DNA of 64,000 bases. It comes from a virus. Its lineage: Duplodnaviria > Caudoviricetes. The notes beneath the pieces are model-generated. The model made no database searches, was not told the DNA's origin, and saw nothing but the letters and a program-made list of their open reading frames with translations. The position numbers were made by a program, and so were the translations under genes. This document shows positions 9,546-61,896 of this stretch, piece by piece; the stretch's first letter is position 1; each line of letters starts with the position of its first letter. The stretch is taken from IMG/VR virus record IMGVR_UViG_3300042691_038938. The stretch is one strand, 5' to 3'.

Positions 9546-10667
9546 TTAGTTATTTATTCGCGGAGAAGGCGGATTCTCATCAGCATCCTCTTCTTCCTGT
9601 TTAGTCTCTAGCTCTTCTCCCTCTTCTGGTTCTTCTACTGGAGTCGTCTTATTTAGATCAGGCTCAAATAGAGAATCAAAGTTGATGGTTGACTTGATTG
9701 CCACCTGAGACGAACGATTTGAATAAGTGTCGATCTGCACGGCGTCTCCTTTGAATTCCAATGATAAGGAAGGTAGAATAGTCTTGAATATCTGCTCATT
9801 CACGTTCTCAATCGGATCGTACACGATGATCTTAGAGATCGGTGGCTCACTCTTTTCGTCAATGATAAAGTTGTTAGTGAGTCCGCCAGACACAGCCACA
9901 CTGAAGCCCTCCCAGCTGTTTATCTCAGCTCCATCCAAGGTTGTCACCATTCCAGTAGAAAGCTTAAGAGTCACTCTAGGATTACCTGAATCTATACCGC
10001 TAGTCGAGACCTCACGTAAGACAGTTCGATTTGTGGTGAACCTCACGCTGAATCTAGTTCCACTAAAGTATCGATCATTTAATTCCTTTCTTTGGGCTGC
10101 AGTCAGGTAAGTTGTTCTTGCGGATTCTCCTATAGGTTTAGGTAATCCTTTTTGTCCAGGATTTAGTTGGTCTTGGCCCTTGTCTAATTGAGGCTGACCT
10201 TGATCCAATTGACCTTGACCGGCATCCAATCCTTCTTGTCCTTTACCCAATCCTTTTTGAGGTTCAGGCAAACCTGGTACTTCAGGATTCTTAGGTTCTT
10301 CGGGTTCTTCGGTTTTTTCAGGTTCAGTCTCCGGAGGCAAAGGTTCTCCTGCAATCACTGCTTCGAAAGCCGCAGCATAATCAGGATTGATCCTTTTCTT
10401 GATCTCCTCGTTTGCCAAGTCAATCTTTCTCTTTAGGAGATTTACCTCGCTTAGGATAACATAGGTCAGGGTAGCATAGCCTTCTTGAAATTTCATGTCA
10501 GGAAAGGCGTCCACTTGATGTAGCCTAGCCGAAACATCCTTCTGGTCAAAGACGGTTTCTCCGTCAACTATTGCCCACAAAAGGTCATAGCTTAGGATTG
10601 CCTGGAAGATGAATCCTCCGTCCCTAAGTCTGATTTCGTCTGATTCTGCCTCAAATATGCTATCCAT
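9546..10667 (-). CDS. hypothetical protein with P/E-rich linker and Q-x-x-L-x-x-G heptad repeats
   Basis: 373-aa ORF in a late minus-strand run. Confidence 0.75.
   Translation of the reverse strand: MDSIFEAESDEIRLRDGGFIFQAILSYDLLWAIVDGETVFDQKDVSARLHQVDAFPDMKFQEGYATLTYVILSEVNLLKRKIDLANEEIKKRINPDYAAAFEAVIAGEPLPPETEPEKTEEPEEPKNPEVPGLPEPQKGLGKGQEGLDAGQGQLDQGQPQLDKGQDQLNPGQKGLPKPIGESARTTYLTAAQRKELNDRYFSGTRFSVRFTTNRTVLREVSTSGIDSGNPRVTLKLSTGMVTTLDGAEINSWEGFSVAVSGGLTNNFIIDEKSEPPISKIIVYDPIENVNEQIFKTILPSLSLEFKGDAVQIDTYSNRSSQVAIKSTINFDSLFEPDLNKTTPVEEPEEGEELETKQEEEDADENPPSPRINN
9551..9558 (-). promoter_or_regulatory. late promoter-like AATAAATA
   Basis: Variant of the T4 TATAAATA late box, ~20 nt upstream of the tail tube start. 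Confidence 0.6.
10141..10260 (-). repeat. six tandem 7-aa repeats (QKGLGKG QEGLDAG QGQLDQG QPQLDKG QDQLNPG QKGLPKP)
   Basis: Read directly from the translation. Confidence 0.75.
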
Positions 10668-10918
10668 TACTTGCGATCTCTGACTCGTTTATAGTTTTTC
10701 CAAAGCTCATTATAGATATTACATGAGGCGCCTAAGAAGTTGATGATTCCAACAAACTTCTTTTTTTCTTCGCCCTCCATGTTAGCGACCTTTACTCCAA
10801 TCTTCTTGGCGTCATTAACTGTGAGTTCCTCGTCCTCGTCCTTACCTACTAACTTCTTTAGATCGCCCTTCTTTTCTAATAGAGCATATCTTTGAAAGCT
10901 TGTGATTGCTCTCTTCAT
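10667..10918 (-). CDS. small basic protein with capsid-targeting-like leader
   Basis: MKRAITSFQRYALLE N-terminus. Confidence 0.65.
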   Translation of the reverse strand: MKRAITSFQRYALLEKKGDLKKLVGKDEDEELTVNDAKKIGVKVANMEGEEKKKFVGIINFLGASCNIYNELWKNYKRVRDRK

Positions 10919-10927
10919 CGGTTTAGA

Positions 10928-11167
10928 TTATTTACGTTTTCCTCCGCCTACGATGTTCTTGTTCTTAGCCGTAGTCATGTACTGCTTAGTGTACTTATCG
11001 ATGTGTGGAGTTCCTTTACCTTTAACTGGTCCTTCAATCAATCCTTGGTTGATCTTCATAGATCCATTCTTATCGTTTGCAGAAACGTTTGCTTTTCCAC
11101 GGTACCCGCTTTCAGCCTTTTTGAATGCTGCCATAAACTGGTTGTAGTTCATAACTGGATTTGCCAT
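10928..11167 (-). CDS. small basic protein
   Basis: MANPVMNYNQFM leader; late box at 11187-11194. Confidence 0.65.
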   Translation of the reverse strand: MANPVMNYNQFMAAFKKAESGYRGKANVSANDKNGSMKINQGLIEGPVKGKGTPHIDKYTKQYMTTAKNKNIVGGGKRK

Positions 11168-11186
11168 TGTTACTTAATTTTTTTAT

Positions 11187-11194
11187 TATTTATC
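11187..11194 (-). promoter_or_regulatory. late promoter-like GATAAATA
   Basis: GATAAATAATAAAA, 20 nt upstream of ATG 11167. Confidence 0.65.
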
Positions 11195-11284: not shown

Positions 11285-11301
11285 ATACTTTATTTAAAAA
11301 T

Positions 11302-11694
11302 TTATCCCTTAGGAAAAAATTGCTTTTTTAATTTAACTGCATACGCAACAGCGTCTGTCGCGGCCTTTTTAACTTCTGCATCTGTTCCATTTGGCCATCC
11401 AAATTCCTTCTTGTTTTTATTGCCATCTGAGTAAACAACATATTTCCAAGGATCAGTTAACTTTGAGTTAAGAAAAAGATTGACTCCTGTATTATGATCA
11501 GGATAACAAAAGTATCCCTTACCATATGATGAAAATCCAGACACATTTGGTTCATCAATGTATTTGAATCCAGCTGCAGCCATTCCTGGTTTTACAATTT
11601 GACCAAAGTGATCAAAATCCTTAACTCGCTCCATTTCAGCTTCTTCAGATTCATGAAGCTTACGCCAATTACTAAAATTTAAAACATTTCCCAT
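11302..11694 (-). CDS. putative internal head protein (capsid-targeting-like leader)
   Basis: MGNVLNFSNWRKLHESE leader; own late box at 11715-11722. Confidence 0.65.
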   Translation of the reverse strand: MGNVLNFSNWRKLHESEEAEMERVKDFDHFGQIVKPGMAAAGFKYIDEPNVSGFSSYGKGYFCYPDHNTGVNLFLNSKLTDPWKYVVYSDGNKNKKEFGWPNGTDAEVKKAATDAVAYAVKLKKQFFPKG

Positions 11695-11714
11695 ATTTTA
11701 AAAATATTTTTTAT

Positions 11715-11722
11715 TATTTATC
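11715..11722 (-). promoter_or_regulatory. late promoter-like GATAAATA
   Basis: Recurrent motif upstream of minus-strand late genes. Confidence 0.65.
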
Positions 11723-11743
11723 TTTTTAAAGGAGAGATTTTTA

Positions 11744-11795
11744 TAGTATAATAGACTTAACTACATAAATTAAACGCCATGAAAAAGTTAGTAAT
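11744..11795 (+). repeat. conserved upstream element copy 1 (TAGTATAATAGACTTAACTACATAAATTAAACGCCATGAAAAAGTTAG)
   Basis: Nearly identical to 13023-13074; contains a TATAAT box, leader and first codons. Confidence 0.85.
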
Positions 11796-12231
11796 TCTTT
11801 TAGTTCTATTGGTTTTAGCCGCTAAAGCCTTCTCTCAAACGATCACAATCGATGTTAAAGAAGCACAGTCTTACATTGATATAGGTCAGACCGACTTCCA
11901 AAGCGTTCTTGATGAACCTGATTGGGAAGACTTTCCTAGAACAACTAACTGTCGATATGTGATCGATTTACAGGACAGCACTTCAACCTTTTACCGAGAT
12001 GGAAAATTCGTAAGTGAGGTAAAGATTGACTATACTGAAGTATCTCCAGGTAAATACGTGATGACTACATACGACACTGCTGTTGAGTCTCACCGCTCAT
12101 CAATATCAGCACAAATGGTATTGGATACTAACGAGAAAACCGAAGAGTTTTTGTACAGCTACTATGACTTTATGGACGATAAGACGTATGTCGACATCCT
12201 AACTAAGTTCACGATAGTTCGACCTGTATAA
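11779..12231 (+). CDS. secreted protein (signal peptide, Gln at +1)
   Basis: MKKLVILLVLLVLAAKAFS|QT; likely beta-rich mature part. Confidence 0.75.
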   Translation: MKKLVILLVLLVLAAKAFSQTITIDVKEAQSYIDIGQTDFQSVLDEPDWEDFPRTTNCRYVIDLQDSTSTFYRDGKFVSEVKIDYTEVSPGKYVMTTYDTAVESHRSSISAQMVLDTNEKTEEFLYSYYDFMDDKTYVDILTKFTIVRPV

Positions 12232-12294: not shown

Positions 12295-12975
12295 TTAAGG
12301 CTTTTGAGTAGGAGTTGCCTTAGCTCTTTCCGTAGCAAGAAAATTACTTAGGAGAGAATGATCCTTTGAATACTTAACGTTGCCGTCTCCTCTAGGAACT
12401 CCGAAAGCTGCCGCAGCGTTACCGCCAGCCTCTCCAAGTTCTTTTTGTGAGATGATCGTCGCGATCCCTGCTGCAATCTGAGCCGCGTCACCATCGTTTG
12501 AAGGTTCTGCTCCAGATTGCACATCTAATTCATAATTTTTATCAGGTCCAATAGACATGATTTGTGACCATGAGCCATGACCTTTTAACACAACATCTCC
12601 GGCTAAATACTGAACACCATTCTTATAAACCAACGCTCTTAATACTCCGTTTTCTGCAGAGAATATCGCTTTTATGGTATTCACCTTTTTAGATTTATCA
12701 GCAGGGTCGAGTGAAGTCTTAAAGCTAATCACCTTGTAAGGTTGTCCAGTCTGTAGACCCATTTGTGTTGTGGTACCGGTAGTGGTTCCTACCATAGTCG
12801 TTAGTGTTTCAGCCTTTCCAGAATTTGTTCCAATTCGATTGAACGCTTTTGCGCTTTGTTCAGCTACAAATTGAATCTTATCAAGAGCTGCAAGATCAGC
12901 TGGAGTCGAACCTGTACCGGTCTCATCAGACTCGTATACTCTATACCAATTTCTAAAATTTAAAACGTGTGACAT
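12295..12975 (-). CDS. putative internal head protein (capsid-targeting-like leader)
   Basis: MSHVLNFRNWYRVYESD leader; late box at 12994-13001. Confidence 0.65.
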   Translation of the reverse strand: MSHVLNFRNWYRVYESDETGTGSTPADLAALDKIQFVAEQSAKAFNRIGTNSGKAETLTTMVGTTTGTTTQMGLQTGQPYKVISFKTSLDPADKSKKVNTIKAIFSAENGVLRALVYKNGVQYLAGDVVLKGHGSWSQIMSIGPDKNYELDVQSGAEPSNDGDAAQIAAGIATIISQKELGEAGGNAAAAFGVPRGDGNVKYSKDHSLLSNFLATERAKATPTQKP

Positions 12976-12993
12976 ACTAAAAATCTTTTTTGT

Positions 12994-13001
12994 TATTTAT
13001 C
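12994..13001 (-). promoter_or_regulatory. late promoter-like GATAAATA
   Basis: Recurrent motif. Confidence 0.65.
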
Positions 13002-13022
13002 TTTAAAAGTTAGCAACTTTTT

Positions 13023-13074
13023 TAGTATAATAGACTTAACCACATAAATTAAACACCATGAAAAAGTTAGCAAT
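13023..13074 (+). repeat. conserved upstream element copy 2 (TAGTATAATAGACTTAACCACATAAATTAAACACCATGAAAAAGTTAG)
   Basis: Two mismatches in 48 nt versus copy 1. Confidence 0.85.
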
Positions 13075-13597
13075 CATCTTGATCTTATTAGTAGTAGCAT
13101 TCGAGTCTTTCTCTCAAGTTCAATATGTAGAATCTTCAAAGTTAGATTCCCTAGTTTGGCATCGAATCAACTCTTACCTAGTCTCACTGGGCAAGACTCC
13201 AATCAAACACTTTGAGGACAGTCTCTCTCGAGAATACAGTTATGAAGTCACTAGAGTAAATGCTGACGCTGAGATGATCGCCCACAGCAAGAACGTAGGA
13301 TTGGTGACCACTGCTGAGTGCATCTATCAAGAGACTCACCGAGGCATGAATAGCGAGTTACAAGTGATGATTGATAAAAAAGAATATGATAAGATAGCAA
13401 AGCTTATCGTTGACTCTTGGATCGCTTCTGAGACCCATCGAAACCTGATCTCAATAAACAATTATGCTGCGACTACTGTGACTACTGTCCTGAAATACGA
13501 TAAGACCGGAAAGATCGCATCAGTCACCGCATCATGGCACGCAATCGACGATCCTAAGATCTGGACCACACGCAGCGGATATGTTTTTCGACCATAA
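13058..13597 (+). CDS. secreted CAP/SCP-domain-like protein
   Basis: Signal peptide ...AFESFS|QV; INSYLVSLGKTP, HSK, ECI and SWIASETHRNLI resemble CAP motifs (W..S.gH..N). Confidence 0.6.
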   Translation: MKKLAIILILLVVAFESFSQVQYVESSKLDSLVWHRINSYLVSLGKTPIKHFEDSLSREYSYEVTRVNADAEMIAHSKNVGLVTTAECIYQETHRGMNSELQVMIDKKEYDKIAKLIVDSWIASETHRNLISINNYAATTVTTVLKYDKTGKIASVTASWHAIDDPKIWTTRSGYVFRP

Positions 13598-13646: not shown

Positions 13647-14978
13647 TTATTTCTTACCTACTGGCCTCTTTGCGCTAAAGTAATAAACTAGACATTCCAT
13701 TGCTTCTTTACCTCCTCTAGTAGAACCTGCAGTAGCAGTACTTCCAACTTTAGTTCCAACCTTTTCGATCTTAGGTTTTTGCTCGTTTGTTGCCAAGTTC
13801 AAGTCAACGAATCGACCGTTATTGTTAGGTCCTCCGGTAGATGCGATCTTCCACGTGATGGTGTAATCTTGGAAACCTGCATGACCTTGACCTGCCAATT
13901 GAGTGTTTAGCTCAGTCATGAAAGAGACTCCTCTGTCGTATGCTAATTTCTTGTTTTTAGCAGAGTCAGTTGTTCCTACTCCAGGATCAGTTGTTCCAGT
14001 AGTTACATCGTAACTCTTTTCCCAACCCGTAACGTTTTTGATCGCGCCGTATTCTGGGCTTGCTGAAGATATCAAATTAAATCCTGTAACAGTCTGGCCT
14101 TTAAACTTCTCAAGAATAGTCTTAGCAAGTTCTGCTACTTGCGTCTTACCTGCAGCAGTTAGGATAGATGATCCTACTTCAAATCCTACGTCTGCTTGAG
14201 TCTTATCTGCACTCACTCCTGCTGTAACTTTAGTCACATCAGTCTCAGTTCTAGTTGTAGTTGATCCTGAAGTGAGCTGAGGAATAAAGAAGATCACAGG
14301 ATCATCGACTCCTCCTGCTCCTGGAGTCAAGCTAATATCGAAAAATCCATCTGTGAAGTTATCTTCCTTCCCATTATACTGACCTGTGCTTGATCCAAAT
14401 GCCTTTGATTTTATGTTATATGAATTCATCGCTCTGATTGCATGTTCATATGACATGAATGCGTCATCGCCAACATTTCTTGCACTAATTACGCTGCCGC
14501 CAAAATACCAATCGCCTTTAGATGCGACATAACCTTCGTCTGGAGTAAATTTTACAGTATATCCAGCATCAGTGAATGATATTGAATTTGGGTCAAGCAT
14601 TTCAAATTCTTTTTCAGTAAACTGACCGGTAGCCGCTGTTAATAGCGTGGTTAGCAGAGTTGCTCCTACTTTTTCTATACTGCCGGCTTCAAGATTACCT
14701 CCATATTCTGTTACTGTTGATCCGCCGAGCAAACCAGAATGGCCTCCATTTTGATTAGAGATGCTCTTTAGTGAATTTGCAATTTTAACAATATTTTGAT
14801 TCTTATCATTAGCTGCAATAAATCCTCTTGCAAAGCCCCCATCAAAGATGATGTCCCTTAGATCAAGTTTATTAGCAATAGTAAGCTCTTGCTTAGGTAG
14901 CATCGGGTCGTTCTTTCCCTCAAAGATGGCAGCTTCATGTACAGCTCTCCACTTCTTGTAATTTAAAATGTATCCCAT
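13647..14978 (-). CDS. putative internal virion protein with C-terminal OmpA-like domain
   Basis: MGYILNYKKWRAVHEAA leader; C-terminal VGFEVGSSILT...NKKLAYDRG...RFVDL resembles OmpA_C. Confidence 0.6.
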   Translation of the reverse strand: MGYILNYKKWRAVHEAAIFEGKNDPMLPKQELTIANKLDLRDIIFDGGFARGFIAANDKNQNIVKIANSLKSISNQNGGHSGLLGGSTVTEYGGNLEAGSIEKVGATLLTTLLTAATGQFTEKEFEMLDPNSISFTDAGYTVKFTPDEGYVASKGDWYFGGSVISARNVGDDAFMSYEHAIRAMNSYNIKSKAFGSSTGQYNGKEDNFTDGFFDISLTPGAGGVDDPVIFFIPQLTSGSTTTRTETDVTKVTAGVSADKTQADVGFEVGSSILTAAGKTQVAELAKTILEKFKGQTVTGFNLISSASPEYGAIKNVTGWEKSYDVTTGTTDPGVGTTDSAKNKKLAYDRGVSFMTELNTQLAGQGHAGFQDYTITWKIASTGGPNNNGRFVDLNLATNEQKPKIEKVGTKVGSTATAGSTRGGKEAMECLVYYFSAKRPVGKK

Positions 14979-14997
14979 TTTTTAGTTAGTTTTTAGT

Positions 14998-15005
14998 TAT
15001 TTATT
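14998..15005 (-). promoter_or_regulatory. late promoter-like AATAAATA
   Basis: Recurrent motif upstream of ATG 14978. Confidence 0.6.
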
Positions 15006-15042
15006 CTTTAAAGCGGTCAAATTTTTTAGTATTTTATCTAAT

Positions 15043-24726: not shown

Positions 24727-26394
24727 TTAGCTGAATGAAGGAGCAACACCACCAGTAAGAACTGCGATATCACCTTGGATATCCATGTTCACATACTGAG
24801 TTTCAGGATGCCATCCACCCTCTGTGATCGCGTAACGAGATTTCATACCGATCTTAGGAGAGAATGTTCCTTCAGAGATAGTCTGAAGAGATTCAGCCAT
24901 GATGTACGGCATGAATTTAACTCCAGGCTCCTCGTCTGCACCTTTACGTCCGATACAGATTCTTGGATCTCCCCAAGATAAGTTAGGATCAACGTAAACT
25001 TGTACACCGTAAACTTTACCAGCTGGGTAAAGGTTACCTGCAACACCGCCCATATCAGTAGGTACAGTTGCAATAGAGTAACCAGCAACGTCAGCCAAAG
25101 CAGAAGCAAGGCGACCGTTGGTTACCATGAATGTACCAGCACCGAAACGACCTCTGTGGTAGATTAGGTTAGCAAGTTCAAGAACTTTAGTAACCAATCT
25201 TCTTTGCAATGTAGAAACGTTTTCGAATCCACCTGCACCAGCAGCTAGGTCAAGAGTAGTGATTCCAGCACCCTCAACTAGCGCGATCTCACCGTTGTGA
25301 TAATCAGCCAATTGGAATACTCGGTCAACCAATCTCTTATTGATAGATTGAGCAAGCTCGTTAACTGCTACGTTCTCTAACATAGAGATAACGTCGTAGT
25401 TCCAAACTCTGTTCAAGTCTTGGATCTGCTCAACAGTTGCAGAGATTGATACTTGATCAGTCTCAGCTTCAACGAACTTAGTGAACATTCTAAGACCCAT
25501 TTGACGGAACTTAGAGTTCTCACCAGCTTCTCTCTTCATTGATCCAGGAACGTTTCCTGTACCAGGAAGGTAAGAACCATTGAATTGGCTGCTAGTTGAA
25601 GATGTACCAGCATCCCAGTAATCAGCATCAGAAACTGATGTGAAACCAGAAATGTGGTTCTCTAAAGCAGAAACCAACTGAACGTTAGCTGGAACAATTG
25701 CAGCAGAAGTATCACCAGCAATAGTGAAAGTAACACCATTCAACTGAGTTGCAAGAGAATCACTAGTTCCATCGTCTTCAAGGATACGAACAATTGCCGT
25801 TCCGTCTACACGAGAGAATCCAACGAAATCTGCAGATCCACCCCAACCTGCACCACCGGGAGTAACAGCGTCACCCGCAACAGCACTGTTGAAAGTAGAG
25901 TAGTCAAAACCTACAAGTTTAACCAAGTAAGGTTCGAACTCAGAACCAGAAGTACGACCTCCAGCATATAGATAATCCAAGTAAGGAAGGAATCCAACTG
26001 GAGAATCCATAGGGATAACTGGAACTAGGTCGAAACCAATAGTTTTTGCTGCTACTTGAATAGCAACTGGTAAAAGTGATGGAAATTTATCACCAGAACC
26101 GTTAGCGCTAGCTGAGAAAGAATTCTTAGCTCCTGCAGTGAACGGAGTCATTGCTGATGTTGGAGCTGATGGGTTCCCCATGAAACCACCAAGAGATCCT
26201 GGTGTTTGGAAGAACACTCCTGGAGAAGAATTCTCGAATACAGGTGCTGTGTTGTCGAAGATCGCGTGGTTGTGAGCGTACTCAGCTAACCAAGGCGTGT
26301 TCTCAACGTTCGCACCATATCCTTCAAGAATCGGCTTCCAGGTGTTTGTCAAACGAGTGTCGTTTGAACGTCTGAAAATTTTAGTACGTGCCAT
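24727..26394 (-). CDS. major capsid protein (gp23-like)
   Basis: WKPILE, IGFDLVPVIPMDSPVG, AINELAQSIN-like region, GAGTFMVT, KFMPYI, PKIGMKSRYA. Confidence 0.93.
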   Translation of the reverse strand: MARTKIFRRSNDTRLTNTWKPILEGYGANVENTPWLAEYAHNHAIFDNTAPVFENSSPGVFFQTPGSLGGFMGNPSAPTSAMTPFTAGAKNSFSASANGSGDKFPSLLPVAIQVAAKTIGFDLVPVIPMDSPVGFLPYLDYLYAGGRTSGSEFEPYLVKLVGFDYSTFNSAVAGDAVTPGGAGWGGSADFVGFSRVDGTAIVRILEDDGTSDSLATQLNGVTFTIAGDTSAAIVPANVQLVSALENHISGFTSVSDADYWDAGTSSTSSQFNGSYLPGTGNVPGSMKREAGENSKFRQMGLRMFTKFVEAETDQVSISATVEQIQDLNRVWNYDVISMLENVAVNELAQSINKRLVDRVFQLADYHNGEIALVEGAGITTLDLAAGAGGFENVSTLQRRLVTKVLELANLIYHRGRFGAGTFMVTNGRLASALADVAGYSIATVPTDMGGVAGNLYPAGKVYGVQVYVDPNLSWGDPRICIGRKGADEEPGVKFMPYIMAESLQTISEGTFSPKIGMKSRYAITEGGWHPETQYVNMDIQGDIAVLTGGVAPSFS

Positions 26395-26423: not shown

Positions 26424-28394
26424 TTACCCTCGGTAGTTTGCTCCTCTGAGCATGTTCTCTAGGTAATTTTGAGAGTAACCTCTCTGCATCTCAACAACCT
26501 GATTTACAGGTACTAGGCCTTCTGTACTTTGGCTCTCGTTGAGTTGTTGCATTTTATTATTTTGTTTTTGAATTTCAATTCTTTCGTTAACTCCTCTTAG
26601 GTCTACTTCGTCCCAGAAAGCTTTAACTTGATATGGAGTGTTCACTGAATAAAGCTGAGCTTTTGCGTGAATTCTTCCTTGCTCGCTCTCATTCATCTCG
26701 TTCCAGATAGGTTTGTACTCAGCTGGCATGAATCGTAAGTAAGTAGGAATGTTTTGCTCTTTGTGATTGATCACTGCTTCCATGATTCCAGTGATATCAT
26801 TCTCATTGAACCATACTGATCCGTTAAGAGCTTCTACGATAGCTTGTTTAGTTCCTGCTTCAAGACCAAAGAAAGATTTCTTGTTTGCCTCACTCATAAC
26901 CTTTAAGAAAGGATATTTGTTTTCAAGCACTGCTTTAGAAGACTTATCGTTTACTTCAGTGATCACTCGGTCAACTTTAGAGATAAGGTTATCGATTGAG
27001 CTAGACTCATTCAATCCGCTAACTCCTCCAAGAACGTTTCTAGTTCTTAGTTTAGTTCCGTCTGTTAAAGACTCGGCAATGTACTCAGAGTATCCAATAG
27101 ATTGTCCAAGTTTTTCAGATAAGTACTGAGCGTATTCTCTGTTCAAGTTAACGTTCTCAGAAACGTATTCAGTAAATTCAATTCCTCGGTTAGCACCTTC
27201 AGCAACGTATTCTGTGTACTGGATGTTTTTGTCAAGCTCCTCAGCCAAGTAGTTTTGGTACTTGATAGAATTGTTTAAGCTCTCTTTAATGTATTCAGAA
27301 TAGTTGATAGACTGATTCAATTTCTCAGAAACATAATCTTGGTAGTTTACTGAACGGTTCAACATCTCTCCAAGGTAAGAAGAATATTCGATACCATTGT
27401 TCGCTGTCTCAGCAACGTGCTCAGTATAATTAATAGACTGATTTACCTTGTGAGAAAGATAATCAGCGTAATTGATTACTCCCTCAAGAGATTCTGCCAA
27501 GTAATTAACATAGCTTCTCAAATCAGAGTCAGTACTTGGAGAATTTTGTGATGATTCAAGCACGGATCTGTGATTCTTCAATTCTTTCTTAATACCAGTG
27601 AACTGTTTTTGCAGAACTTCGGAATACTTATCCATCTGCTCTTTTGTTACAAACTCTGCCATTGTGTTGTTATTTTTTTGTTCTTGTATAGTTCGCTGGA
27701 AATTGTTTCCTGAACTATTTTCTAGTTTATTTATCTTGTAAACTTTAAAATTGTCTGCAAAGTTTAAACTTTCAGATAAGTCAACTAGTCCAGATTTTTG
27801 TATTAAGGAATTTTCTTTCATTGATGAGTAACTCTCGTTAATCATCGAGAAGTTAGACTTAAGAGATTCGCTCACAGTCTGACGAAGAACAGCCTCAGTA
27901 AAACCAGGCTCTCCGACTAAATCGTAAGTAAATATTCTTTGTAATTTTACTGCTCCGCTCTCGCTTACTTGACCTGCGGCTCTAGAAGAGATCGACAATT
28001 GAACTCCTCCATCGATGAGTGCTTTGGCAAGCTTTCCATGAGGAGTGTTCTCCAAGAGTCTTACTTTAATATGGACCTTGTTTCCTCCGTCATAATTAAG
28101 ACCCTCAATGATGTGTGATGCCTCGCTCAACTTAGCCTCAAAGTGCTGAGGGTGATCGATTGTTCCAACCAACTGTCTTTTTGAGATCTTGTCCTGCAAG
28201 TAAGTAAGATGAGGAAGGTATTCAGTCTTTTCGTATACCCTACGATTGTTATTCATCTGACCAAACACGGCACATACTCCTTCGAGTACTGTTCCTGCCG
28301 ATCCGGTGTTCTGAACTTGGAGTTTTTCTCCAACGTTCTCTACGATTAGCACCCAATCATTACGATCGATTTGTGCTGAGTTAGGATTCATCAA
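26424..28394 (-). CDS. prohead protease (gp21-like) fused to scaffold/core-like repeat domain
   Basis: LEGVCAVFGQMNNNRRVY, GTIDHP, ENTPHGK, SISSRAAG, TYDLVGEPGF, followed by 14-aa Tyr-rich repeats. Confidence 0.88.
   Translation of the reverse strand: MMNPNSAQIDRNDWVLIVENVGEKLQVQNTGSAGTVLEGVCAVFGQMNNNRRVYEKTEYLPHLTYLQDKISKRQLVGTIDHPQHFEAKLSEASHIIEGLNYDGGNKVHIKVRLLENTPHGKLAKALIDGGVQLSISSRAAGQVSESGAVKLQRIFTYDLVGEPGFTEAVLRQTVSESLKSNFSMINESYSSMKENSLIQKSGLVDLSESLNFADNFKVYKINKLENSSGNNFQRTIQEQKNNNTMAEFVTKEQMDKYSEVLQKQFTGIKKELKNHRSVLESSQNSPSTDSDLRSYVNYLAESLEGVINYADYLSHKVNQSINYTEHVAETANNGIEYSSYLGEMLNRSVNYQDYVSEKLNQSINYSEYIKESLNNSIKYQNYLAEELDKNIQYTEYVAEGANRGIEFTEYVSENVNLNREYAQYLSEKLGQSIGYSEYIAESLTDGTKLRTRNVLGGVSGLNESSSIDNLISKVDRVITEVNDKSSKAVLENKYPFLKVMSEANKKSFFGLEAGTKQAIVEALNGSVWFNENDITGIMEAVINHKEQNIPTYLRFMPAEYKPIWNEMNESEQGRIHAKAQLYSVNTPYQVKAFWDEVDLRGVNERIEIQKQNNKMQQLNESQSTEGLVPVNQVVEMQRGYSQNYLENMLRGANYRG
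27066..27512 (-). repeat. ~10.5 tandem 14-aa repeats (Y-x-[ED]-Y-[LVI]-x-E-x-L-N-x-S-I-x)
   Basis: Read directly from the translation, YVNYLAESL through YSEYIAESL. Confidence 0.85.
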
Positions 28395-28438: not shown

Positions 28439-29443
28439 CTAAGTTTTAGACTCGCAGTCTAACATTAGTGCTCTTAATTTATCAGATTTTTCTTTACTTA
28501 AGGAATAAACGTCAGGCACAGAGACATCGAACTTGACTAAATATTCCCCTACCTTTCCCTTATCGTCCTTAATTCCGCTATTGGGTATGGAGAACTTTAA
28601 GTTATTTAGAGTCTTTGGTCCATTTATCGATGCTTCGTATTTCTTATTGAATAGAGTCTCGATCTGTACTTTTTCTTCCCCGAATAGGACCTTACTTAAC
28701 GGCACCTCTATCGTGTGAACTATTTTATTCTCCTCAATTGATATTTTTTCGGGAATCTTGAACTCTATCGTCAGGTACAGATCACCAACTAGAGGTATCT
28801 GTTCCAGTTCTCCCCAAATATTGGTTCTGGTCACAACTTCTTCGTTGCCTAGTCCTGAGACTCTGACTACAGTAAAGGTCTTTCCCTTTTCTTTCTTGAT
28901 CTGAAAGTGGGTCGCTCTAAGGTCTATCGCTATTGTGATCTCCTTTTCCTCGTCCTCAACCAAGTAGTTTATTAGGTTTGATACTTTTCCAGTATAATTT
29001 ATCTTTTTTCTGGTGAACTCAAGCTTTATCTTTGTGCCAATTAGTGCATCTGATAGATCTATTTCATGATTTAACTTGATGTCCAGGTGATTGGTAGTCG
29101 GTGGCGGCGCGTGAGTTCTTCCTTGGGTCTTTTTTTCTCTATTTGATCTCTCTCTCCGCCAATCCTCGTTCTTAAAGTTATTCATGAATTCCTCAAAACC
29201 GAATCCTCCGCCCTGTCCTCCTTGACGAGGCCCTCCTCCAAAGTTTCTAGAGTCGTACTCTTGTCTCTTTTTAGAATCGCTCAGAACCGAGTAGGCCTCT
29301 GCCAACCTTTTAAACTTTTCTTCTGCTTGTGAATCATCCTTATTTTTATCAGGATGATACTGTAGAGCCAGCTTACGATATGCCTTTTTTATCTCGGCTT
29401 CGTTTGCAGTTCTTGCAACCCCTAAAACTGAATAATAGTCCAA
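28439..29443 (-). CDS. DnaJ/CbpA-type co-chaperone (J domain, G/F linker, no zinc finger)
   Basis: [23 protein letters not shown]-rich linker, C-terminal GDLY. Confidence 0.9.
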
Positions 29444-29507: not shown

Positions 29508-30122
29508 ATGTCTCTAATTAAGACGTTAAAGGAATTCGCTGGCATACATACTGGAAAAAAGATAATAGTTTGCGGCTGCGGAGTCTCGCTAGTAGATTTT
29601 AAGGAACATCACCAAGATTTCATAACGATTGGGGTGAATGACGTTAGTGAGCTATTCGATCCCACATATCTACTAGTCACTGATCATTCAGGAAGGTTCA
29701 GCTCTGATAGGAGACGAAGAGTTCACGGAACCAATGCAAAATACGTGTTTACTTGTGCTAAGGGTTGGTATCACAAAAACCTAGTCCATTTTGAATTAGG
29801 AAGCAGGTCCCTTACTAACCTTGACCATCCTGATAGAATAGATCATTACATGAATTCTCCGTATGCTGCTGCGATCCTTGCCTACAAGATGGGAGCGAAG
29901 AATATCGGCCTGATTGGAGTCGATTTTACAGATGGCCATTTCTATAATCTAAAGGACGGTAAACATCCTATAGTGAAATCAAACTACCTTAACAAAGTGA
30001 ATTCAGCCTATCAGACTCTTAGCAGCGAGCTTGCTAAGAGAGGCACAACGCTAGTCAACCTAAGTCCAATCAGCAACCTCGCAATACGAAAAATAAGCTT
30101 GGAGGAGTTTAAAAAGATATGA
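29508..30122 (+). CDS. MptE/Maf (DUF115)-like protein, candidate nonulosonate transferase
   Basis: IIVCGCGVSL, TIGVN, AAILAYKMGAKNIGLIGVDF, LVNLS; typical DUF115 pattern (IiG.GpSL...LaY.MG.k.I.LiG.D). Confidence 0.65.
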   Translation: MSLIKTLKEFAGIHTGKKIIVCGCGVSLVDFKEHHQDFITIGVNDVSELFDPTYLLVTDHSGRFSSDRRRRVHGTNAKYVFTCAKGWYHKNLVHFELGSRSLTNLDHPDRIDHYMNSPYAAAILAYKMGAKNIGLIGVDFTDGHFYNLKDGKHPIVKSNYLNKVNSAYQTLSSELAKRGTTLVNLSPISNLAIRKISLEEFKKI

Positions 30123-35109: not shown

Positions 35110-35115
35110 GAATCG

Positions 35116-35739: not shown

Positions 35740-35748
35740 TACATACAA

Positions 35749-37974: not shown

Positions 37975-37983
37975 TTTTAAGAA

Positions 37984-47071: not shown

Positions 47072-49030
47072 TCAGTCTCGGTTTTTCAAAAAATCGTTAA
47101 AGCTTGAAATCTTTTGTACCATCGATTTCTTCTTGGTTTTCTTACCCTTTGGCTTTCTTCCCGGACCAGCAAGAGCAAAGGTATCCATGTTAGAGTCTAC
47201 CATTGTGCCTGGAGTCTGGAATGCTGTTCCTGGAGAGACTCCTCCCTCGCTCTCCTTCATCTCAGCCGACTTGTAAAACTTAGGGCCCTCATTATCTCCA
47301 TAAGGAGTTAGTCCAACTACGTCTAACCTAGCCTTTGCTGTCGCCTTTTTAAGACCCTTATCAAAGTCTCGACCTGCTTGCTTTCCTCTAGTCACTAGGA
47401 CTCCTGCTTTGATTATGCTTGCGAGTCCATTGAATATTGCCTGGTTCTGCTTAGCGTTCTTTGCAGCGACTACTGCATCCCCTGCATCAGGGATTCCGGC
47501 AAAAAGTCCTACGACCAACTGCCCTAGTCCCTTAAGAATGTTCTTTAGCGGACTCTCTGCAATACGATCCTTTTCGCTTACGGCTAGCTTTATTTTAACG
47601 TATAGTGGAAGCTTTAGGTCTGGCTTTAACTGGATTCCCTTAAAGTTACCCATGTTAAAGTCCTTAGAGAGATAGCTATTCTTGATCTGTTTTTCTTTCT
47701 CAGCAGCAATGGCCTCTACTTTAGTCACGGCTGATGTTCTGTCCCTGTCTGAAAGTTCTCCGTCCTCTGAGCTCTTGATGTATTTTAGGATCCACTCCTT
47801 ACTTAAGGAAAGATACGTTAGCTGGTCTTCCTCTAGCGCGCTCTCTTTTGAAGAGCTCGCTTTAAATTGAGCTGCTCTACTTAAGCTATTAAACTCGTTA
47901 GTGATAGCATTTTCCATCCACGCAGAGTTCTTCTTGTCCAGTGCCTTGAATAGCTTATAATAGTCTCCTCCTGGAGGAGAAACTTCCCCATTCACAATAG
48001 GAGGAAGTAACGCAAGGTTAAGTGCCGAGATTAAATTGTTCTTGATCAAGTTCTTTCGACGAAGACTCGGCTTCTCAACTTTTCCAAGTTGTTCCTCTTT
48101 CTTTTTTATTGCTTTATCGTAGACCGCTTGATATCCTAGTGCGTCTATTAGAGGCTTCCAATCTATGTTCAATTGATATAGTCCTTCTGGCGTGTTTGGG
48201 ATATCGTAAATTCTCTTTTTATCTTCAGCCATCGCATCGGCAATCTCCTTAGCTATCAAATCGTTTGCCTTTTGCAAGATCTTTTCGATCTTTTTTCTAT
48301 TTGATGCGCCTACTGATTTTTTAGCCTCCTCAACGATCTCAGGATTAGACTTAAGAATTCCTTTAAACATCGATTTCTTTAGAGTCTGCTCGTTTCCGTT
48401 CTGATCAGTTATGATGAACTCGTCCGACTTTACTGCATTGTGAACTCCTCCTACTAGCTTTATCTTATAGACTGGAGTTCCCTCCCTCGTTGAGAACTTC
48501 AGCTCAGTTCCGTTCTCTTTGAAATAGAGCATAAGAGCAGTCTCAGTGTCGTAATCTGGTGCAGTGCTTGCGTAACTAAATATTTTATGGATCTTATAGA
48601 TACGACTTGAGAGTTCAGCTTCTCTAGTTTTTAAGGCATAAAACTTCTTAAATGAGTCCTCAGGTTTTATCTTTTTCTTTTCTGCTGAGATCTGACTGAT
48701 CGTCTTTCTAGTCCTCTTCACGAACTCGTCAACCATTCCGATCTTTTCAGGCTCGACCAACATCATGAGAATCCTTTGAAGTTCAGGCTGATTTTGAATC
48801 TTTTCTAGTAGATTGACGTCAATCTTTTCTAATGCCTTTTCTAAAGAGTCAAAGGATGTTGTCCTAGCGGTGTCGTCGACTGGATCACCTCCTATTCCGC
48901 TCGAAATTAGCTCCCGAATCTCATCGAACTCAGAACTTGATTCGTCCTTCTTTGACGAAGTCTCAGCTTCCGCTTCAAAAACGGGAGTGACTGTTCCCAG
49001 CCAATGTTTTAAGTATTCTCCAAAGCTCAT
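47072..49030 (-). CDS. large helical hypothetical late protein
   Basis: 652 aa, K/E-rich; late box at 49050-49057. Confidence 0.75.
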   Translation of the reverse strand: MSFGEYLKHWLGTVTPVFEAEAETSSKKDESSSEFDEIRELISSGIGGDPVDDTARTTSFDSLEKALEKIDVNLLEKIQNQPELQRILMMLVEPEKIGMVDEFVKRTRKTISQISAEKKKIKPEDSFKKFYALKTREAELSSRIYKIHKIFSYASTAPDYDTETALMLYFKENGTELKFSTREGTPVYKIKLVGGVHNAVKSDEFIITDQNGNEQTLKKSMFKGILKSNPEIVEEAKKSVGASNRKKIEKILQKANDLIAKEIADAMAEDKKRIYDIPNTPEGLYQLNIDWKPLIDALGYQAVYDKAIKKKEEQLGKVEKPSLRRKNLIKNNLISALNLALLPPIVNGEVSPPGGDYYKLFKALDKKNSAWMENAITNEFNSLSRAAQFKASSSKESALEEDQLTYLSLSKEWILKYIKSSEDGELSDRDRTSAVTKVEAIAAEKEKQIKNSYLSKDFNMGNFKGIQLKPDLKLPLYVKIKLAVSEKDRIAESPLKNILKGLGQLVVGLFAGIPDAGDAVVAAKNAKQNQAIFNGLASIIKAGVLVTRGKQAGRDFDKGLKKATAKARLDVVGLTPYGDNEGPKFYKSAEMKESEGGVSPGTAFQTPGTMVDSNMDTFALAGPGRKPKGKKTKKKSMVQKISSFNDFLKNRD

Positions 49031-52725: not shown

Positions 52726-53283
52726 TTAGATCTCGGCTTTAGGTTCTTCAGTAGGAGCTTGACCTGGAGTCTTTTCCTTGGCTTCAACCTTTGGCTCTGA
52801 TTTTTTCTGTTTTGCTTTATTTATTGAGTCTCTAATACTCTTCGCGTCCATACCTATTGAAATGGTCGCAACGTTGTCTGAATCTTCTTTGTTCTCAGAG
52901 AAGTACTCAGCAATCTTTTTTAGGTTCATATTTAGATCACTACCGAATCCTCCAGCCTTTTCTATCTTGTCCTTAAGGCTTTCAGTGGCTTCAAATGAAC
53001 CTGTATATGCGATCGACCAGCAGTAAAATCTTACTTGCTCGCCGTTTCCTGAATAATATCTTTGCAGTTCTTTAATTCTTTGAATGGCACCGTTTGCGTC
53101 TCTAGAAGTAAGAGCCTTTCCCAAGTAATCAGATGGAACTCCGAATCTCACGCGGTCTGATAGCACATCCATTAGCTCCTCTATTCGTTGGATTAAGGTC
53201 TCTGCCTTGTAGCCTCTTAAAGATTTAGACGATTCTTCAGCTTCGTTCACGTACTGAAAATAGCTTCGCATATATTTTGCCAT
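52726..53283 (-). CDS. putative internal head protein (capsid-targeting-like leader)
   Basis: MAKYMRSYFQYVNEAEE leader; late box at 53301-53308. Confidence 0.6.
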   Translation of the reverse strand: MAKYMRSYFQYVNEAEESSKSLRGYKAETLIQRIEELMDVLSDRVRFGVPSDYLGKALTSRDANGAIQRIKELQRYYSGNGEQVRFYCWSIAYTGSFEATESLKDKIEKAGGFGSDLNMNLKKIAEYFSENKEDSDNVATISIGMDAKSIRDSINKAKQKKSEPKVEAKEKTPGQAPTEEPKAEI

Positions 53284-53300: not shown

Positions 53301-53308
53301 TATTTATT
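53301..53308 (-). promoter_or_regulatory. late promoter-like AATAAATA
   Basis: Recurrent motif overlapping the stop of the upstream gene. Confidence 0.6.
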
Positions 53309-54515: not shown

Positions 54516-54523
54516 GATAAATA
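54516..54523 (+). promoter_or_regulatory. late promoter-like GATAAATA
   Basis: Upstream of ATG 54546. Confidence 0.6.
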
Positions 54524-54545: not shown

Positions 54546-55037
54546 ATGGGAAAATACATCAAGCTATTTGAGGACTATGAAAACGAACTAAAGAATTCGG
54601 ACGAAGAGACCTCTCACAACTGGACCGACATTCGTGATGCCGTCCAGATGAGACTGCCCTTCGTGATAATAGTCTTCAAGAACTCTGATTCATACCTATC
54701 TGCGTTGGACTCTGAACTGATCGGTGGAGACTACATCAAGCAAAAAGCCCTAATGAGTAAGGACGGAACGCTTGTTAAGTACCCTTCGATCTTCATGGTT
54801 GTCCAGGACGACGAGACCTTTAAGAATAAGATACCAAAGATATTCGATGCATTTAAGACTAAGGTGATCTTTTTGGGTAAAAAGGGAGACGACCAGATTG
54901 ACTGTTATTACTCAGATGGATCTAACGTACAAGCAGGTAATGAGATAGTGTCCTCCTTAGGAAAGGATGAGATGGACAACAACGACCACTTTGAGATAGG
55001 ATCAACTAATTACATGTTTGTTGACTTCGTCGGATAA
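54546..55037 (+). CDS. hypothetical protein with capsid-targeting-like leader
   Basis: MGKYIKLFEDYENE. Confidence 0.65.
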   Translation: MGKYIKLFEDYENELKNSDEETSHNWTDIRDAVQMRLPFVIIVFKNSDSYLSALDSELIGGDYIKQKALMSKDGTLVKYPSIFMVVQDDETFKNKIPKIFDAFKTKVIFLGKKGDDQIDCYYSDGSNVQAGNEIVSSLGKDEMDNNDHFEIGSTNYMFVDFVG

Positions 55038-57133: not shown

Positions 57134-57475
57134 TCAGTAGTTACTCATGTCCCAATTAGGTTCATCTTCGCCAGTCTCAGGATTTCTTAAAAGGTCTAGC
57201 GCGTGTTCTAAACCTGCCTTTATATCCTCAATTGAATTATAAGAAGACATTCCACTAACAAACATTTTAGCTAGCTTACGATCTCCGCTTAATTCTGTAA
57301 ACAACATCTCTAATTGAGTTTGCTCTTCTGGAGTAAGCTCATCATATTGAGCCTTTTGTCCCCTTCCTCCAACTAGTTCAGATCTAAGTCGAGTTGATTT
57401 ACTCTCTGGCTCTGAGCCATAATAGTATCCTTCATTTATGAATCGACCGAAAGGTTTTACATGATTTCTTTTCAT
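57134..57475 (-). CDS. putative internal head protein (capsid-targeting-like leader)
   Basis: MKRNHVKPFGRFINEG leader; AATAAATA at 57494-57501. Confidence 0.6.
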   Translation of the reverse strand: MKRNHVKPFGRFINEGYYYGSEPESKSTRLRSELVGGRGQKAQYDELTPEEQTQLEMLFTELSGDRKLAKMFVSGMSSYNSIEDIKAGLEHALDLLRNPETGEDEPNWDMSNY

Positions 57476-57492: not shown

Positions 57493-58257
57493 TTATTTAT
57501 TTAGCTTCTCAGCATTTTCAATCTTTTCAAAAACTTTTTCTATCTTCTTGATTATAGGGTGCCGAACGATATCATCAGTCGATAGCCGAGCCATACCAAT
57601 CTCCTCAATCTCCACGAAATATTCCATCAAGATCTCAAGCGCGCTCTTTTGATTCTTATTAACTGACTTTTGCTTGATGTCTCCTAAGAAGACCATCTTT
57701 GAATTCATTCCGATCCTGGTGATTAGAGTATGCAGGTGATCCTTTGCGATCTGCTGAGCCTCATCTATCAAGATGATTGAATCGTCTAACGTGACTCCTA
57801 GAGCAAACTTTATCGGCAGGATCTCGATCTTTCCGGCCGCCTTAAGAAACTCGGTCGCAGGCTTGCCAATCACTTTATGAAAGTTAGAGATGAATGGATA
57901 CATGTACATCTCCATCTTCTCCTCAAGAGTTCCCTTTAAGTAACCTATCTCCTCGTCCTTAGGAACGTTGACTGACTTTATTAGGATGATCTTTTTATAG
58001 GTTCCTGGATCGTCCTTTAAGTACTTGAGAGCTCTAGCGCAAGAGAGGTATGTCTTACCCGTCCCTGGAGGACCTGTCACTATCGATATATCGTGATTCT
58101 CAATGGCGTTTATTGCATCCTTTTGTGCCTTTGATCTACATTTTATGTCTATCCTTTCGTTAAAATTCTTTGAAGTCTCAATCGCTTCTCTCTCCTTGGA
58201 CCACAGGTCAAAGTCTTCTTGTTCTTCCTTGTTTAGTTGATTCTTTTTTCTTGCCAT
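57493..58257 (-). CDS. phoH: PhoH-family ATPase
   Basis: GPPGTGKT, IGYLKGTLEEK, DEAQ, RIG, GD..Q, DIVRHP. Confidence 0.92.
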   Translation of the reverse strand: MARKKNQLNKEEQEDFDLWSKEREAIETSKNFNERIDIKCRSKAQKDAINAIENHDISIVTGPPGTGKTYLSCARALKYLKDDPGTYKKIILIKSVNVPKDEEIGYLKGTLEEKMEMYMYPFISNFHKVIGKPATEFLKAAGKIEILPIKFALGVTLDDSIILIDEAQQIAKDHLHTLITRIGMNSKMVFLGDIKQKSVNKNQKSALEILMEYFVEIEEIGMARLSTDDIVRHPIIKKIEKVFEKIENAEKLNK

Positions 58258-60438: not shown

Positions 60439-61564
60439 TATCTTGACCAATTACAGTATACCTGAATTTGTTAGAGACCTCCTAAAAAAGAGGTTTCCTG
60501 GAGACAGGTTAAAACAGACTGTACACGACGCTGGAGATAAGCTTAACTTTGCATGCCCTTACTGTGGGGATTCCAAGACTGATTCCAAGAAGAAGAGAGG
60601 TAACCTCTATCCTGAGAGAGGATTCTATAAGTGTTACAACGACGGGTGTTCCATCAAGGTGGATACTGCAAAGTTCGTCTCAAAATACGCTCAGACGTAT
60701 GGATTAGAGATCCCAAGCGTCAAGGCTGTTGAACCGCAATGGGTACACAACACTTCCAAGAAGAAAAAAGGCTCCCTTATCGAGCTCCTAATAAATCGAA
60801 ACATCGGATCATCCCTATTAGAAATAGATTATCTGGTCTCTAGGTTTTCTTTAACTCCCTGCAAAGAGGCCGACTTTGGATCTAGAATAGGGCAGTTTGT
60901 GGAGAGTCGAGGACTTAAAGGAATACCCACATTTGATGACTGTTGCTACTTCGATTCAAGCCAGAACAAGGTGTATCTCTTTAACGTCGACCTAAAATCA
61001 AAGAAGATCTTGGGATTTGCTATTCGTCGATTAGACCAAGTGAGCGGTCCAAAGTACTTGATCAAGAACTATGCTGAACTAAAGAAAAACGGGCTAGTTC
61101 CTTCGCTAAACGATGAGGTGATAGGGGACATAGATTCTCTGAATAATTACTTTAACGTTTTTAACGTTGACTTCACCAAGCCAGTCTTTGTGACTGAGGG
61201 TCAGATTGATGCAATGTTTCTTCAAAACGCGATAGCCACGACTGGAGTCTCTAAGAGTAAGCTGCTTCTTGAGAACCTTCTCTCTAAGAACTCTGCCCTC
61301 ATCTTCTTCGATAGTGACCTTGCTGGAAAAAAGCAGTCGATTGAGCTCATTAAGAAAGGATATCGAGTCTTCCTATGGAGCAAGGTGATGAATGACTTAA
61401 AAATAAAGTACAAAGCCGATCGATTTGAAGTGTCTCTAATAAAAGACGTTAACGACTTGTTCCAATTCATTCATTCAAGAGAAGAAGGGTTCGGGTTTGA
61501 CGAATTTAACTCATTTGTTCTAGATTACTTTTCAGAATCGCCTCTAGATCTCATCTTGGTGTAG
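60431..61564 (+). CDS. DNA primase (gp61-like)
   Basis: Zinc ribbon CPYCGD...CYNDGC; TOPRIM VTEGQIDAMF and FFDSD. Confidence 0.88.
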   Translation: MFDILTNYSIPEFVRDLLKKRFPGDRLKQTVHDAGDKLNFACPYCGDSKTDSKKKRGNLYPERGFYKCYNDGCSIKVDTAKFVSKYAQTYGLEIPSVKAVEPQWVHNTSKKKKGSLIELLINRNIGSSLLEIDYLVSRFSLTPCKEADFGSRIGQFVESRGLKGIPTFDDCCYFDSSQNKVYLFNVDLKSKKILGFAIRRLDQVSGPKYLIKNYAELKKNGLVPSLNDEVIGDIDSLNNYFNVFNVDFTKPVFVTEGQIDAMFLQNAIATTGVSKSKLLLENLLSKNSALIFFDSDLAGKKQSIELIKKGYRVFLWSKVMNDLKIKYKADRFEVSLIKDVNDLFQFIHSREEGFGFDEFNSFVLDYFSESPLDLILV

Positions 61565-61571
61565 ATAAATA
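61564..61571 (+). promoter_or_regulatory. late promoter-like GATAAATA
   Basis: Upstream of ATG 61591. Confidence 0.6.
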
Positions 61572-61590
61572 ACAAAAAGATCAAAAATTC

Positions 61591-61896
61591 ATGAAAAGAA
61601 GAATTTTATCGCTTAGAGACTATCGTCTTTATGAGTCTATCGATGAAAACGTTGACTTAAACATTGATACTGCTATCCTAGATGAGCTAGTTGAACTCGT
61701 TGGATCAGAAGAGGACGTTGAAGAGGCTGCAAAAGCTGCTTTTGAGGACTTATCGGCTGCCGCTAAATCTAATCAAGTTGAAATGACGGAAGGCGACGTT
61801 CCTGAAAAGCTAGCGATGGCTGCATTACTAGTAAAACTTGTTGAAATGGGAAAACTCGATCCAACTAATGCTGATAAGCTCATGGAAAAAGTATAA
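61591..61896 (+). CDS. putative internal head protein (capsid-targeting-like leader)
   Basis: MKRRILSLRDYRLYESID leader, then acidic helices. Confidence 0.6.
   Translation: MKRRILSLRDYRLYESIDENVDLNIDTAILDELVELVGSEEDVEEAAKAAFEDLSAAAKSNQVEMTEGDVPEKLAMAALLVKLVEMGKLDPTNADKLMEKV

Follow-up and report, generated by a model that had tools for sequence, protein, structure and literature searches.

In phage T4, unrelated late proteins (IPII/IPIII, IPI and Alt) are made with a short N-terminal leader, the capsid targeting sequence (CTS), which is removed by the prohead protease gp21. The T4 CTS reads MKTYQEFIAE (PMC8442874). Mapping with amber suppressors attributed targeting to residues 4 and 7 of this leader and processing to residues 8 and 10, and the cleavage rule for gp21 is after L/I-X-E (PMC9026906). 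In phiKZ, 201phi2-1 and SPN3US, the inner-body/ejection proteins carry propeptides that are cut by gp21-like proteases at S/A-X-E or A-X-E (PMC5694885, PMC9026906), and these propeptides presumably direct their proteins to the prohead. Work on T4 has also led to the suggestion that T4-like phages can use the CTS to load a variety of proteins. Here, eight open reading frames (ORFs) with CTS-like leaders are described in IMGVR_UViG_3300042691_038938, a 64 kb stretch of phage DNA (40% G+C; hereafter, the window) whose source is an uncultured freshwater T4-like jumbo phage. Comparison of the sequences suggests, with a probability of roughly 0.8, that these leaders are T4-type propeptides that combine late expression with docking to the prohead core, cleavage past a Glu by a protease of the S77 family, and retention of the protein in the head.

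All eight ORFs proposed in the initial annotation are present with the starts and N-termini claimed for them, and they are numbered here by position (ORF1 to ORF8). Their common N-terminus had been described by the loose pattern hydrophobic-x-[FYL]-x-x-[WYF]-x(2-4)-E; the leader is indeed shared, and it can be written more tightly as Ar-x-x-Ar-(0-2 residues)-[LIVM]-x-Glu, where Ar is an aromatic residue. The leaders are 14-15 residues long and align without large gaps, with Met1 and the Glu at residue 14 or 15 being invariant. Similar to the T4 CTS, this is a short N-terminal leader found on unrelated late proteins; it combines an aromatic pair (P7 and P4 in the T4 register, which ORF5 and ORF7 match exactly) with Ile/Leu/Val at P3, Glu at P1, and a small or polar residue past the cut, and the four conserved positions are those mapped in T4 for targeting and processing. 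As in T4, the same genome has a protease of the gp21 family and a capsid protein of the gp23 type, along with a late promoter box like that of T4. In contrast to T4, which has three to four such leaders, the 64-kb window has eight and a complete relative has about 20-25; the window leaders are also longer than the T4 leader, have a basic start, and fall into three spacing classes. The likeness extends in part to phiKZ, 201phi2-1 and SPN3US, which are jumbo phages in which many head-internal proteins are processed past Glu by a diverged gp21 homologue. The propeptides of these phages are mostly longer than 100 residues and have a small residue (Ser/Ala) at P3, whereas the window leaders are of T4 length with a hydrophobic P3 and a T4-like aromatic pair.

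The three classes differ in the number of residues between the aromatic pair and [LIVM]-x-E. Spacer 0 is represented by ORF5 (52726-53283, minus strand, 185 residues), with the canonical leader Y-F-Q-Y-V-N-E ending at residue 14, and ORF7 (57134-57475, minus strand, 113 residues), with the canonical leader F-G-R-F-I-N-E ending at residue 15; of the eight, these two alone have the exact T4 register (aromatics at P7 and P4, hydrophobic P3, Glu P1). ORF6 (54546-55037, plus strand, 163 residues) shares this spacing through F-E-D-Y-E-N-E, in which P3 is Glu, and has an alternative LFE ending at residue 9. Spacer 1 comprises ORF1 (10667-10918, minus strand, 83 residues), whose leader ends in LLE at residue 15, and ORF8 (61591-61896, plus strand, 101 residues, acidic), whose leader L-R-D-Y-R-L-Y-E also ends at residue 15 and in which the first "aromatic" is a Leu. 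Spacer 2 comprises ORF2 (11302-11694, minus strand), a 130-residue orphan with LNF..W..LHE at residues 5-15, ORF3 (12295-12975, minus strand, 226 residues) and ORF4 (13647-14978, minus strand, 443 residues), in which the leader ends in VHE at residue 15 and a second site, IFE, follows at residue 20. The leaders of ORF2, ORF3 and ORF4 are plainly homologous to one another. Past the leaders the bodies are unrelated, as had been claimed: no pair matched in BLASTP below E=0.1, and searches of Pfam and PHROGs (E<=0.01) returned no family apart from a weak match of ORF5 to a PHROG of function unknown.

The capsid protein of the window is only 27-36% identical to any in GenBank phage records; the best matches there belong to uncultured huge phages and Lak phages, with jumbo phages of Tenacibaculum and Chryseobacterium next, and megablast of 6 kb of the window against phage records gave no match. 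IMG/VR holds more than 100 relatives with capsid identities of 58-81% on contigs of up to 271 kb. Two whole relatives served as independent test sets, namely G1 (G001; 270,136 bp and rated complete, with a capsid protein identity of 63%) and G5 (G005; 207,110 bp, with a capsid protein identity of 74%). In addition to the head genes discussed below, the window encodes baseplate, head-closure, helicase, primase and polymerase genes.

The N-terminal placement of the motif was examined with the pattern [FYW]xx[FYW][LIVM]xE, which was taken from the T4 literature to keep it from being fitted to the data. Matches were counted within the first 22-24 residues of proteins from the window, G1 and G5, and the expectation was calculated from the internal rate. 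The spacer-0 pattern was found in 2 of 70 window genes (0.15 expected), 18 of 316 genes in G1 (1.9 expected) and 9 of 241 genes in G5 (1.0 expected), for a pooled count of 29 against 3.07 expected (P=8e-19). The variants with one and two inserted residues, which lie outside the T4 register, are N-terminally enriched as well in the pooled set (8 matches with spacer 1 versus 1.55 expected, P=2e-4; 10 matches with spacer 2 versus 1.48 expected, P=4e-6), yet no N-terminal enrichment was seen in these genomes for spacers of 3, 4 or 6. Measured against the internal rate, the N-terminal excess of the strict motif is about tenfold in two independent genomes. These results also bear on the proposal that the leaders reflect compositional chance, in which AT-rich gene starts yield N-termini rich in Lys, Asn, Phe and Tyr, and a loose pattern is fitted to them afterwards. 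The first pattern was loose, a relaxed one catches a primase and recombinases, and the window has a G+C content that would suit such an effect. The strict pattern was fixed from T4 beforehand, however, and still gave the excess in both genomes, while neighbouring spacings were unenriched; moreover, leader genes are associated with late boxes, and the motif residues do not vary even where the bodies within a family share only 38-60% identity. Compositional chance is very improbable and is largely excluded.

A positive control with the same pattern on the T4 genome retrieved ipII, ipIII, gp61.1 and gp61.4 (4 of 254 genes), indicating that the leader repertoire of this clade is several times that of T4. 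It can be added that T4 gp61.1 (NC_000866, 18966-19130, minus strand), a hypothetical protein of 54 residues, starts with MKTFKEFIKE, a near-perfect copy of the CTS. An ungapped position-specific scoring matrix (PSSM) trained on the G1 and G5 leaders only gave 17.6 bits to ORF5, 13.0 to ORF7 and 11.5 to ORF6, and all three outscored every one of 20,000 null windows. As the matrix retrieves ORF5, ORF6 and ORF7 only, the other five leaders were handled as spacer variants. A profile search of the relatives' records with the eight-leader alignment was too insensitive (4 weak matches), and the genomes were scanned by pattern instead.

The upstream regions of these genes are likewise reminiscent of T4 and suggest late expression. 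The claim that seven of the eight have a late box of their own holds, with the late-promoter-like NATAAATAA[TC]AAAAA lying 17-22 nt (in one count 15-22 nt) before the ATG at 11715-11722 (ORF2), 12994-13001 (ORF3), 14998-15005 (ORF4), 53301-53308 (ORF5), 54516-54523 (ORF6), 57494-57501 (ORF7) and 61564-61571 (ORF8). ORF1 has no box of its own; it starts 9 nt past the stop of a box-bearing gene for a 79-residue protein, behind which it is presumably co-transcribed. The same box, NATAAATAA[TC]AAAAA, also precedes the protease gene, two large genes of the tail/baseplate block with no family match, and a few other genes. In the window, the box is associated with 6 of 8 leader genes versus 8 of 62 others (Fisher P=5e-4), and the association is present in G1 and G5 in a weaker form. 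The 79-residue gene that heads the operon containing ORF1 (10928-11167, minus strand) has a leader-like N-Y-N-Q-F-M without the Glu. Its G5 orthologue has the same Glu-less start, and the neighbouring gene in G1, a possible homologue, has the full motif; the leader of the 79-residue protein may be an uncleaved targeting tag.

The late boxes of ORF2, ORF3 and ORF4 lie in three homologous bidirectional promoter cassettes (11695-11778, 12976-13057 and 14979-15042). Each combines the minus-strand late box for the leader gene with a plus-strand -10 element of the TAGTATAATA type about 20 nt away, and the plus-strand elements serve a secreted/lipoprotein gene or an Fpg/Nei-like gene. Two small genes with Bacteroidota-style signal peptides ending in FSQ (11779-12231 and 13058-13597, both plus strand) are interleaved on the opposite strand with ORF2 to ORF4. 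They could be sites of recombination at which cargo cassettes are shuffled; the promoter cassettes, not the signal-peptide genes, are meant here.

Conservation within each leader family provides further information on how the leaders evolve. The ORF1 orthologues have bodies that are 91% (G5) and 62% (G1) identical to that of the window, and the leader letters differ in both with Ar-x-x-Ar-x-[LIV]-x-E kept. ORF3 has four homologues that are 38-48% identical overall, in all four of which L5, N6, F7, W10 and E15 are invariant (4/4). Homologues of ORF4 carry the same body behind either a leader of the window type or a different, longer leader ending in LLNE-G. The ORF5 family comprises at least 133 proteins, and the strict [FYW]xx[FYW][LIVM]xE is kept in 118 of the 120 examined; here the leader is followed by an acidic linker of variable length and then by a conserved body starting PLKGY. 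A close relative of ORF6 keeps the leader, and in the G5 orthologue a canonical F-Q-H-Y-L-N-E is encoded in the same frame, ahead of the first ATG. In ORF7, F9, F12, N14 and E15 are invariant in 6/6 homologues, and an 11-residue indel falls right past E15-G16. For ORF8, the spacer-1 motif is retained at 9 of 14 related loci, while at the other 5 the N-terminus is shorter and ends in LLE, with the late box in the same place in all; the closest locus keeps the leader of the window, and eight more distant ones start with M(R/K)R[IV]M..RE[YF].[ILV]NE. No relatives of ORF2 were found in IMG/VR, and ORF2, ORF3 and ORF7 appear from these comparisons to be narrowly distributed. The leader is consequently modular: one leader type occurs on unrelated bodies, two leader types (with [L]-x-E ends) occur on the ORF4 body, and a leader is present on some ORF6 orthologues and absent from another. 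In the ORF3, ORF5, ORF7 and ORF8 families alike, the Glu is followed by an indel or by a linker that varies. Conservation of the motif, variation of the linker past the Glu, and leaders that are gained, lost and swapped make up the profile expected of a removable modular propeptide.

The window also encodes the enzyme that would remove such a propeptide. The prohead protease domain (gp21/Peptidase_S77, PF03420, 36.5 bits against a cut-off of 27) lies at 27792-28391 on the minus strand, aligns to the T4 gp21 structure 5JBL, and forms the N-terminal part of a 655-residue ORF (26424-28391, minus strand) that is directly upstream of the capsid gene. The catalytic residues, namely the His of a DHP motif (H80) and the Ser-Ser of an SSR motif (S135/S136), are invariant in 25/25 aligned relatives, and in the alignment with T4 gp21 they fall on the positions that were mutated in its crystal construct. 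The protease N-terminus has IVE at residues 16-18, comparable to LIE-9 of T4 gp21. Residues 290-447 of the same ORF (27051-27524, minus strand) form a scaffold-like array of ten units with an exact 14-residue spacing, each containing Y-x-x-[YH]-[LIV]-x-E. Throughout the window, 9 of the 11 internal matches to the strict motif fall within the protease ORF. The array has 9 units in G1, 10 in G5, and 7-11 across 37 distinct relatives. Tandem Repeats Finder detected no DNA-level repeat in the protease gene, indicating that the array is maintained at the protein level. Since the protease and capsid genes have no separate scaffold gene between them, residues 290-447 are likely to be the scaffold fused to its protease, and by analogy with the processing of T4 gp22 by gp21, this region is most likely cut at every unit. 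In the T4 genome, gp22 starts with MLKEQLIAE, close to the CTS.

The resemblance between the leaders and the scaffold unit goes beyond the four defining positions, mainly through Ser/Thr at P6 and polar residues at P5 and P1', and at the non-defining positions it has a z of about 4 versus both random and N-terminal controls. Related cleavage sites are found in the gp23-type major capsid protein (24727-26394, minus strand; Pfam Gp23 PF07068, E=1.7e-33). Its propeptide region (26233-26394, minus strand) has two [LIV]-x-E sites, W-K-P-I-L-E-G near residue 24 and V-F-E near residue 54, the first of which has a counterpart in the W-K-P-L-L-E-G of T4 gp23. Both sites are kept in all of the approximately 55 distinct N-termini listed (79 relatives), and a variable linker comes next. 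Directly upstream of the protease is a gene for a protein with a DnaJ C-terminal domain (28439-29185, minus strand), the G5 orthologue of which also has a J domain; this protein may assist in assembling the head or delivering the cargo as a phage-encoded chaperone.

Taken as T4-type propeptides, the leaders suggest the following mechanism. First, each protein would be made late in infection from its own late promoter. Next, the amphipathic N-terminal segment, with its aromatics three apart, would dock onto the prohead core, which would be built largely of the scaffold region fused to the protease. After shell closure, the gp21-family serine protease would cut past the Glu of [LIVM]-x-Glu, freeing the mature protein inside the head, and the same protease would chop the scaffold at its ten motif copies and trim the capsid propeptide. 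Finally, the mature proteins would remain in the DNA-filled head and probably exit with the DNA at infection. By analogy with T4, the eight proteins are probably packaged in the capsid. We infer docking, cleavage, virion retention and ejection, and for ejection with the DNA the argument extends one step further, from what happens in T4 and phiKZ-like phages. An anti-defence or host-takeover role for the cargo is speculation.

The leaders could instead be mere protease-recognition propeptides (e.g., latency peptides) that have no part in capsid targeting, in which case any packaging would depend on regions outside the leader. In T4, targeting can be separated from processing (PMC9026906), and the [LIVM]-x-E end is the best conserved element and is common to the scaffold and the capsid propeptide, both substrates of the protease. 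However, the aromatic pair, which is unneeded for gp21-type L/I-X-E cutting, is as conserved as the cut site and corresponds to the T4 targeting residues. Furthermore, the prohead protease acts within the closed prohead, and its substrates must therefore already be inside. Recognition without targeting is accordingly judged quite improbable. Docking to a different partner, such as the adjacent DnaJ-like chaperone, a membrane or another assembly site, would leave the leaders unlinked to the head interior. DnaJ substrate sites favour short aromatic/hydrophobic peptides, the DnaJ_C-domain gene is directly upstream of the protease and has the J-domain orthologue in G5, and cell-wall-binding domains are present on ORF4 and on some relatives. 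What a tag of this kind leaves unexplained is the invariant Glu at a fixed distance, the variable linker past the Glu, the identity of the conserved positions with those for targeting and processing in T4, and the repeated occurrence of the motif in the scaffold region joined to the protease. Involvement of a chaperone might also come in addition to head targeting and not in its place, and a partner outside the head is considered unlikely.

Several observations weigh against reading the leaders as T4-type propeptides. The window-only figures for spacer 0 are weak (2 matches against 0.15 expected), and ORF2, ORF3 and ORF4 are not independent of one another since their leader is common by descent. 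ORF1 to ORF4 and ORF8 score poorly in the ungapped PSSM and have one or two extra residues after the aromatic pair, and for these five proteins the T4 analogy is looser. ORF6 has its Glu at P3, and its G1 orthologue lacks the leader. The pattern also matches improbable cargo, namely the window primase and the UvsX-like recombinases of G1 and G5; due to such false positives, single matches are not trustworthy without context. Lastly, the bodies in the window have isoelectric points of 4.0-9.4 and are mostly acidic, whereas the T4 internal proteins are small, basic and DNA-associated. Despite these points, the proposal of the initial annotation that unrelated late proteins share a T4-type targeting leader that is cleaved off is well supported by the protease and gp23 context, the agreement with the T4 positions, the N-terminal enrichment, the conservation of the leaders, and the recurrence of the motif in the scaffold and capsid propeptide. 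Its further proposal, that the cargo is injected and may supply anti-defence or host-takeover effectors, is more speculative and fits ORF1 and ORF5 poorly. Homologues of ORF1 are found in both whole relatives and those of ORF5 in one of the two, with at least 133 database homologues for the latter, and from this distribution ORF1 and ORF5 look like conserved core head components rather than variable effectors.

The bodies of some of these proteins have been probed by structure prediction. The AlphaFold2 model of ORF4 has a mean predicted local distance difference test (pLDDT) score of 75.8, and its top 50 Foldseek matches in the PDB are all OmpA/MotB-type domains (E of 1e-3 to 5e-2, target template modelling (TM) scores of 0.5-0.67), which fits a conserved N-x-x-L-A-x-x-R-G stretch. 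The model points to a peptidoglycan-binding domain similar to OmpA/MotB at the C-terminus of ORF4 and thereby to a role at the cell envelope. In the model of ORF5 (pLDDT 79.9), the leader and linker (residues 1-18) are unstructured, and the fold has no meaningful match in the PDB (best E=0.056, TM about 0.2). A lead from the ESM-Atlas (0.85) that ORF6 is an S-adenosylmethionine lyase was rejected, as Pfam gave no support at E<=10 and hhalign against the T3 SAMase gave a probability of 0.1%.

Leader-bearing proteins of the relatives include two NUDIX hydrolases, a phage lysozyme and a PG_binding_1 protein, as well as weaker matches to HAD-like and nucleotidyltransferase-like proteins. By function, the NUDIX, lysozyme and peptidoglycan-binding members of this putative cargo appear to resemble enzymes that T4 and phiKZ-like phages package. 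A putative cargo with enzymes and cell-wall binders sets the clade apart from T4 with its internal proteins. In T4, ipII, ipIII, the lysozyme gene e and the NUDIX gene nudE adjoin one another (65416-67490); in the relatives, the lysozyme and NUDIX proteins themselves bear the leader.

The mechanism itself is already known from T4, as are propeptide-bearing head proteins from phiKZ-like phages, and the present analysis extends both to a much larger cargo set. A search of the literature turned up papers on T4, phiKZ and SPN3US only, and none on large CTS repertoires among environmental T4-like jumbo phages. Novel features are the size of the leader set, its division into three spacing classes, and the scaffold array of 14-residue units with the leader motif. 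A single reading frame that gives both a maturation protease and the scaffold it later degrades has precedents in lambda C/Nu3 and P2 gpO. In contrast to these, the scaffold in the window consists of ten 14-residue units, each with the motif of the cargo leaders, and we know of no description of such an array. To our knowledge, the docking mechanism of the CTS is still undefined even in T4, and the motif shared by array and leaders leads to a simple hypothesis for the CTS binding partner. The cargo leader might be a single copy of the 14-residue scaffold unit, such that the cargo co-assembles as an extra "repeat" and one type of protease site both frees the cargo and dismantles the scaffold. 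This idea is tentative and its odds are somewhat below even; if it is true, it would supply a concrete docking mechanism for capsid-targeting sequences and would explain how at least 20 unrelated proteins, including the NUDIX hydrolases and lysozyme of the relatives, are tagged for delivery with the DNA.

If the leaders act as in T4, the packaged head proteome of a whole clade of uncultured freshwater jumbo phages is readable from sequence. The clade is abundant, with more than 100 contigs in IMG/VR and genomes of about 250-270 kb. The resulting list of packaged proteins is a place to seek those that act in the first seconds of infection, such as cell-wall binders, nucleotide hydrolases and possible counter-defence factors.

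Two further genes of the window contain related sequences. A late gene for a 652-residue protein (47072-49030, minus strand) has a longer leader-like start, F-x-x-Y-L-x-x-W followed by V-F-E at residue 19, and its G5 orthologue has I-F-E at residues 7-9 with no clear aromatic pair in register. A 290-residue ORF (8168-9040, minus strand) has an internal strict motif, F-K-R-F-V-N-E, at residues 149-155, and its G1 and G5 homologues start at its Met36; the motif may mark a place where the protease cuts within the protein, whose gene is conserved and close to the head module. An 11-kb block of genes of the glycan-biosynthesis type (29508-40719, plus strand) separates the head module from that of the baseplate.

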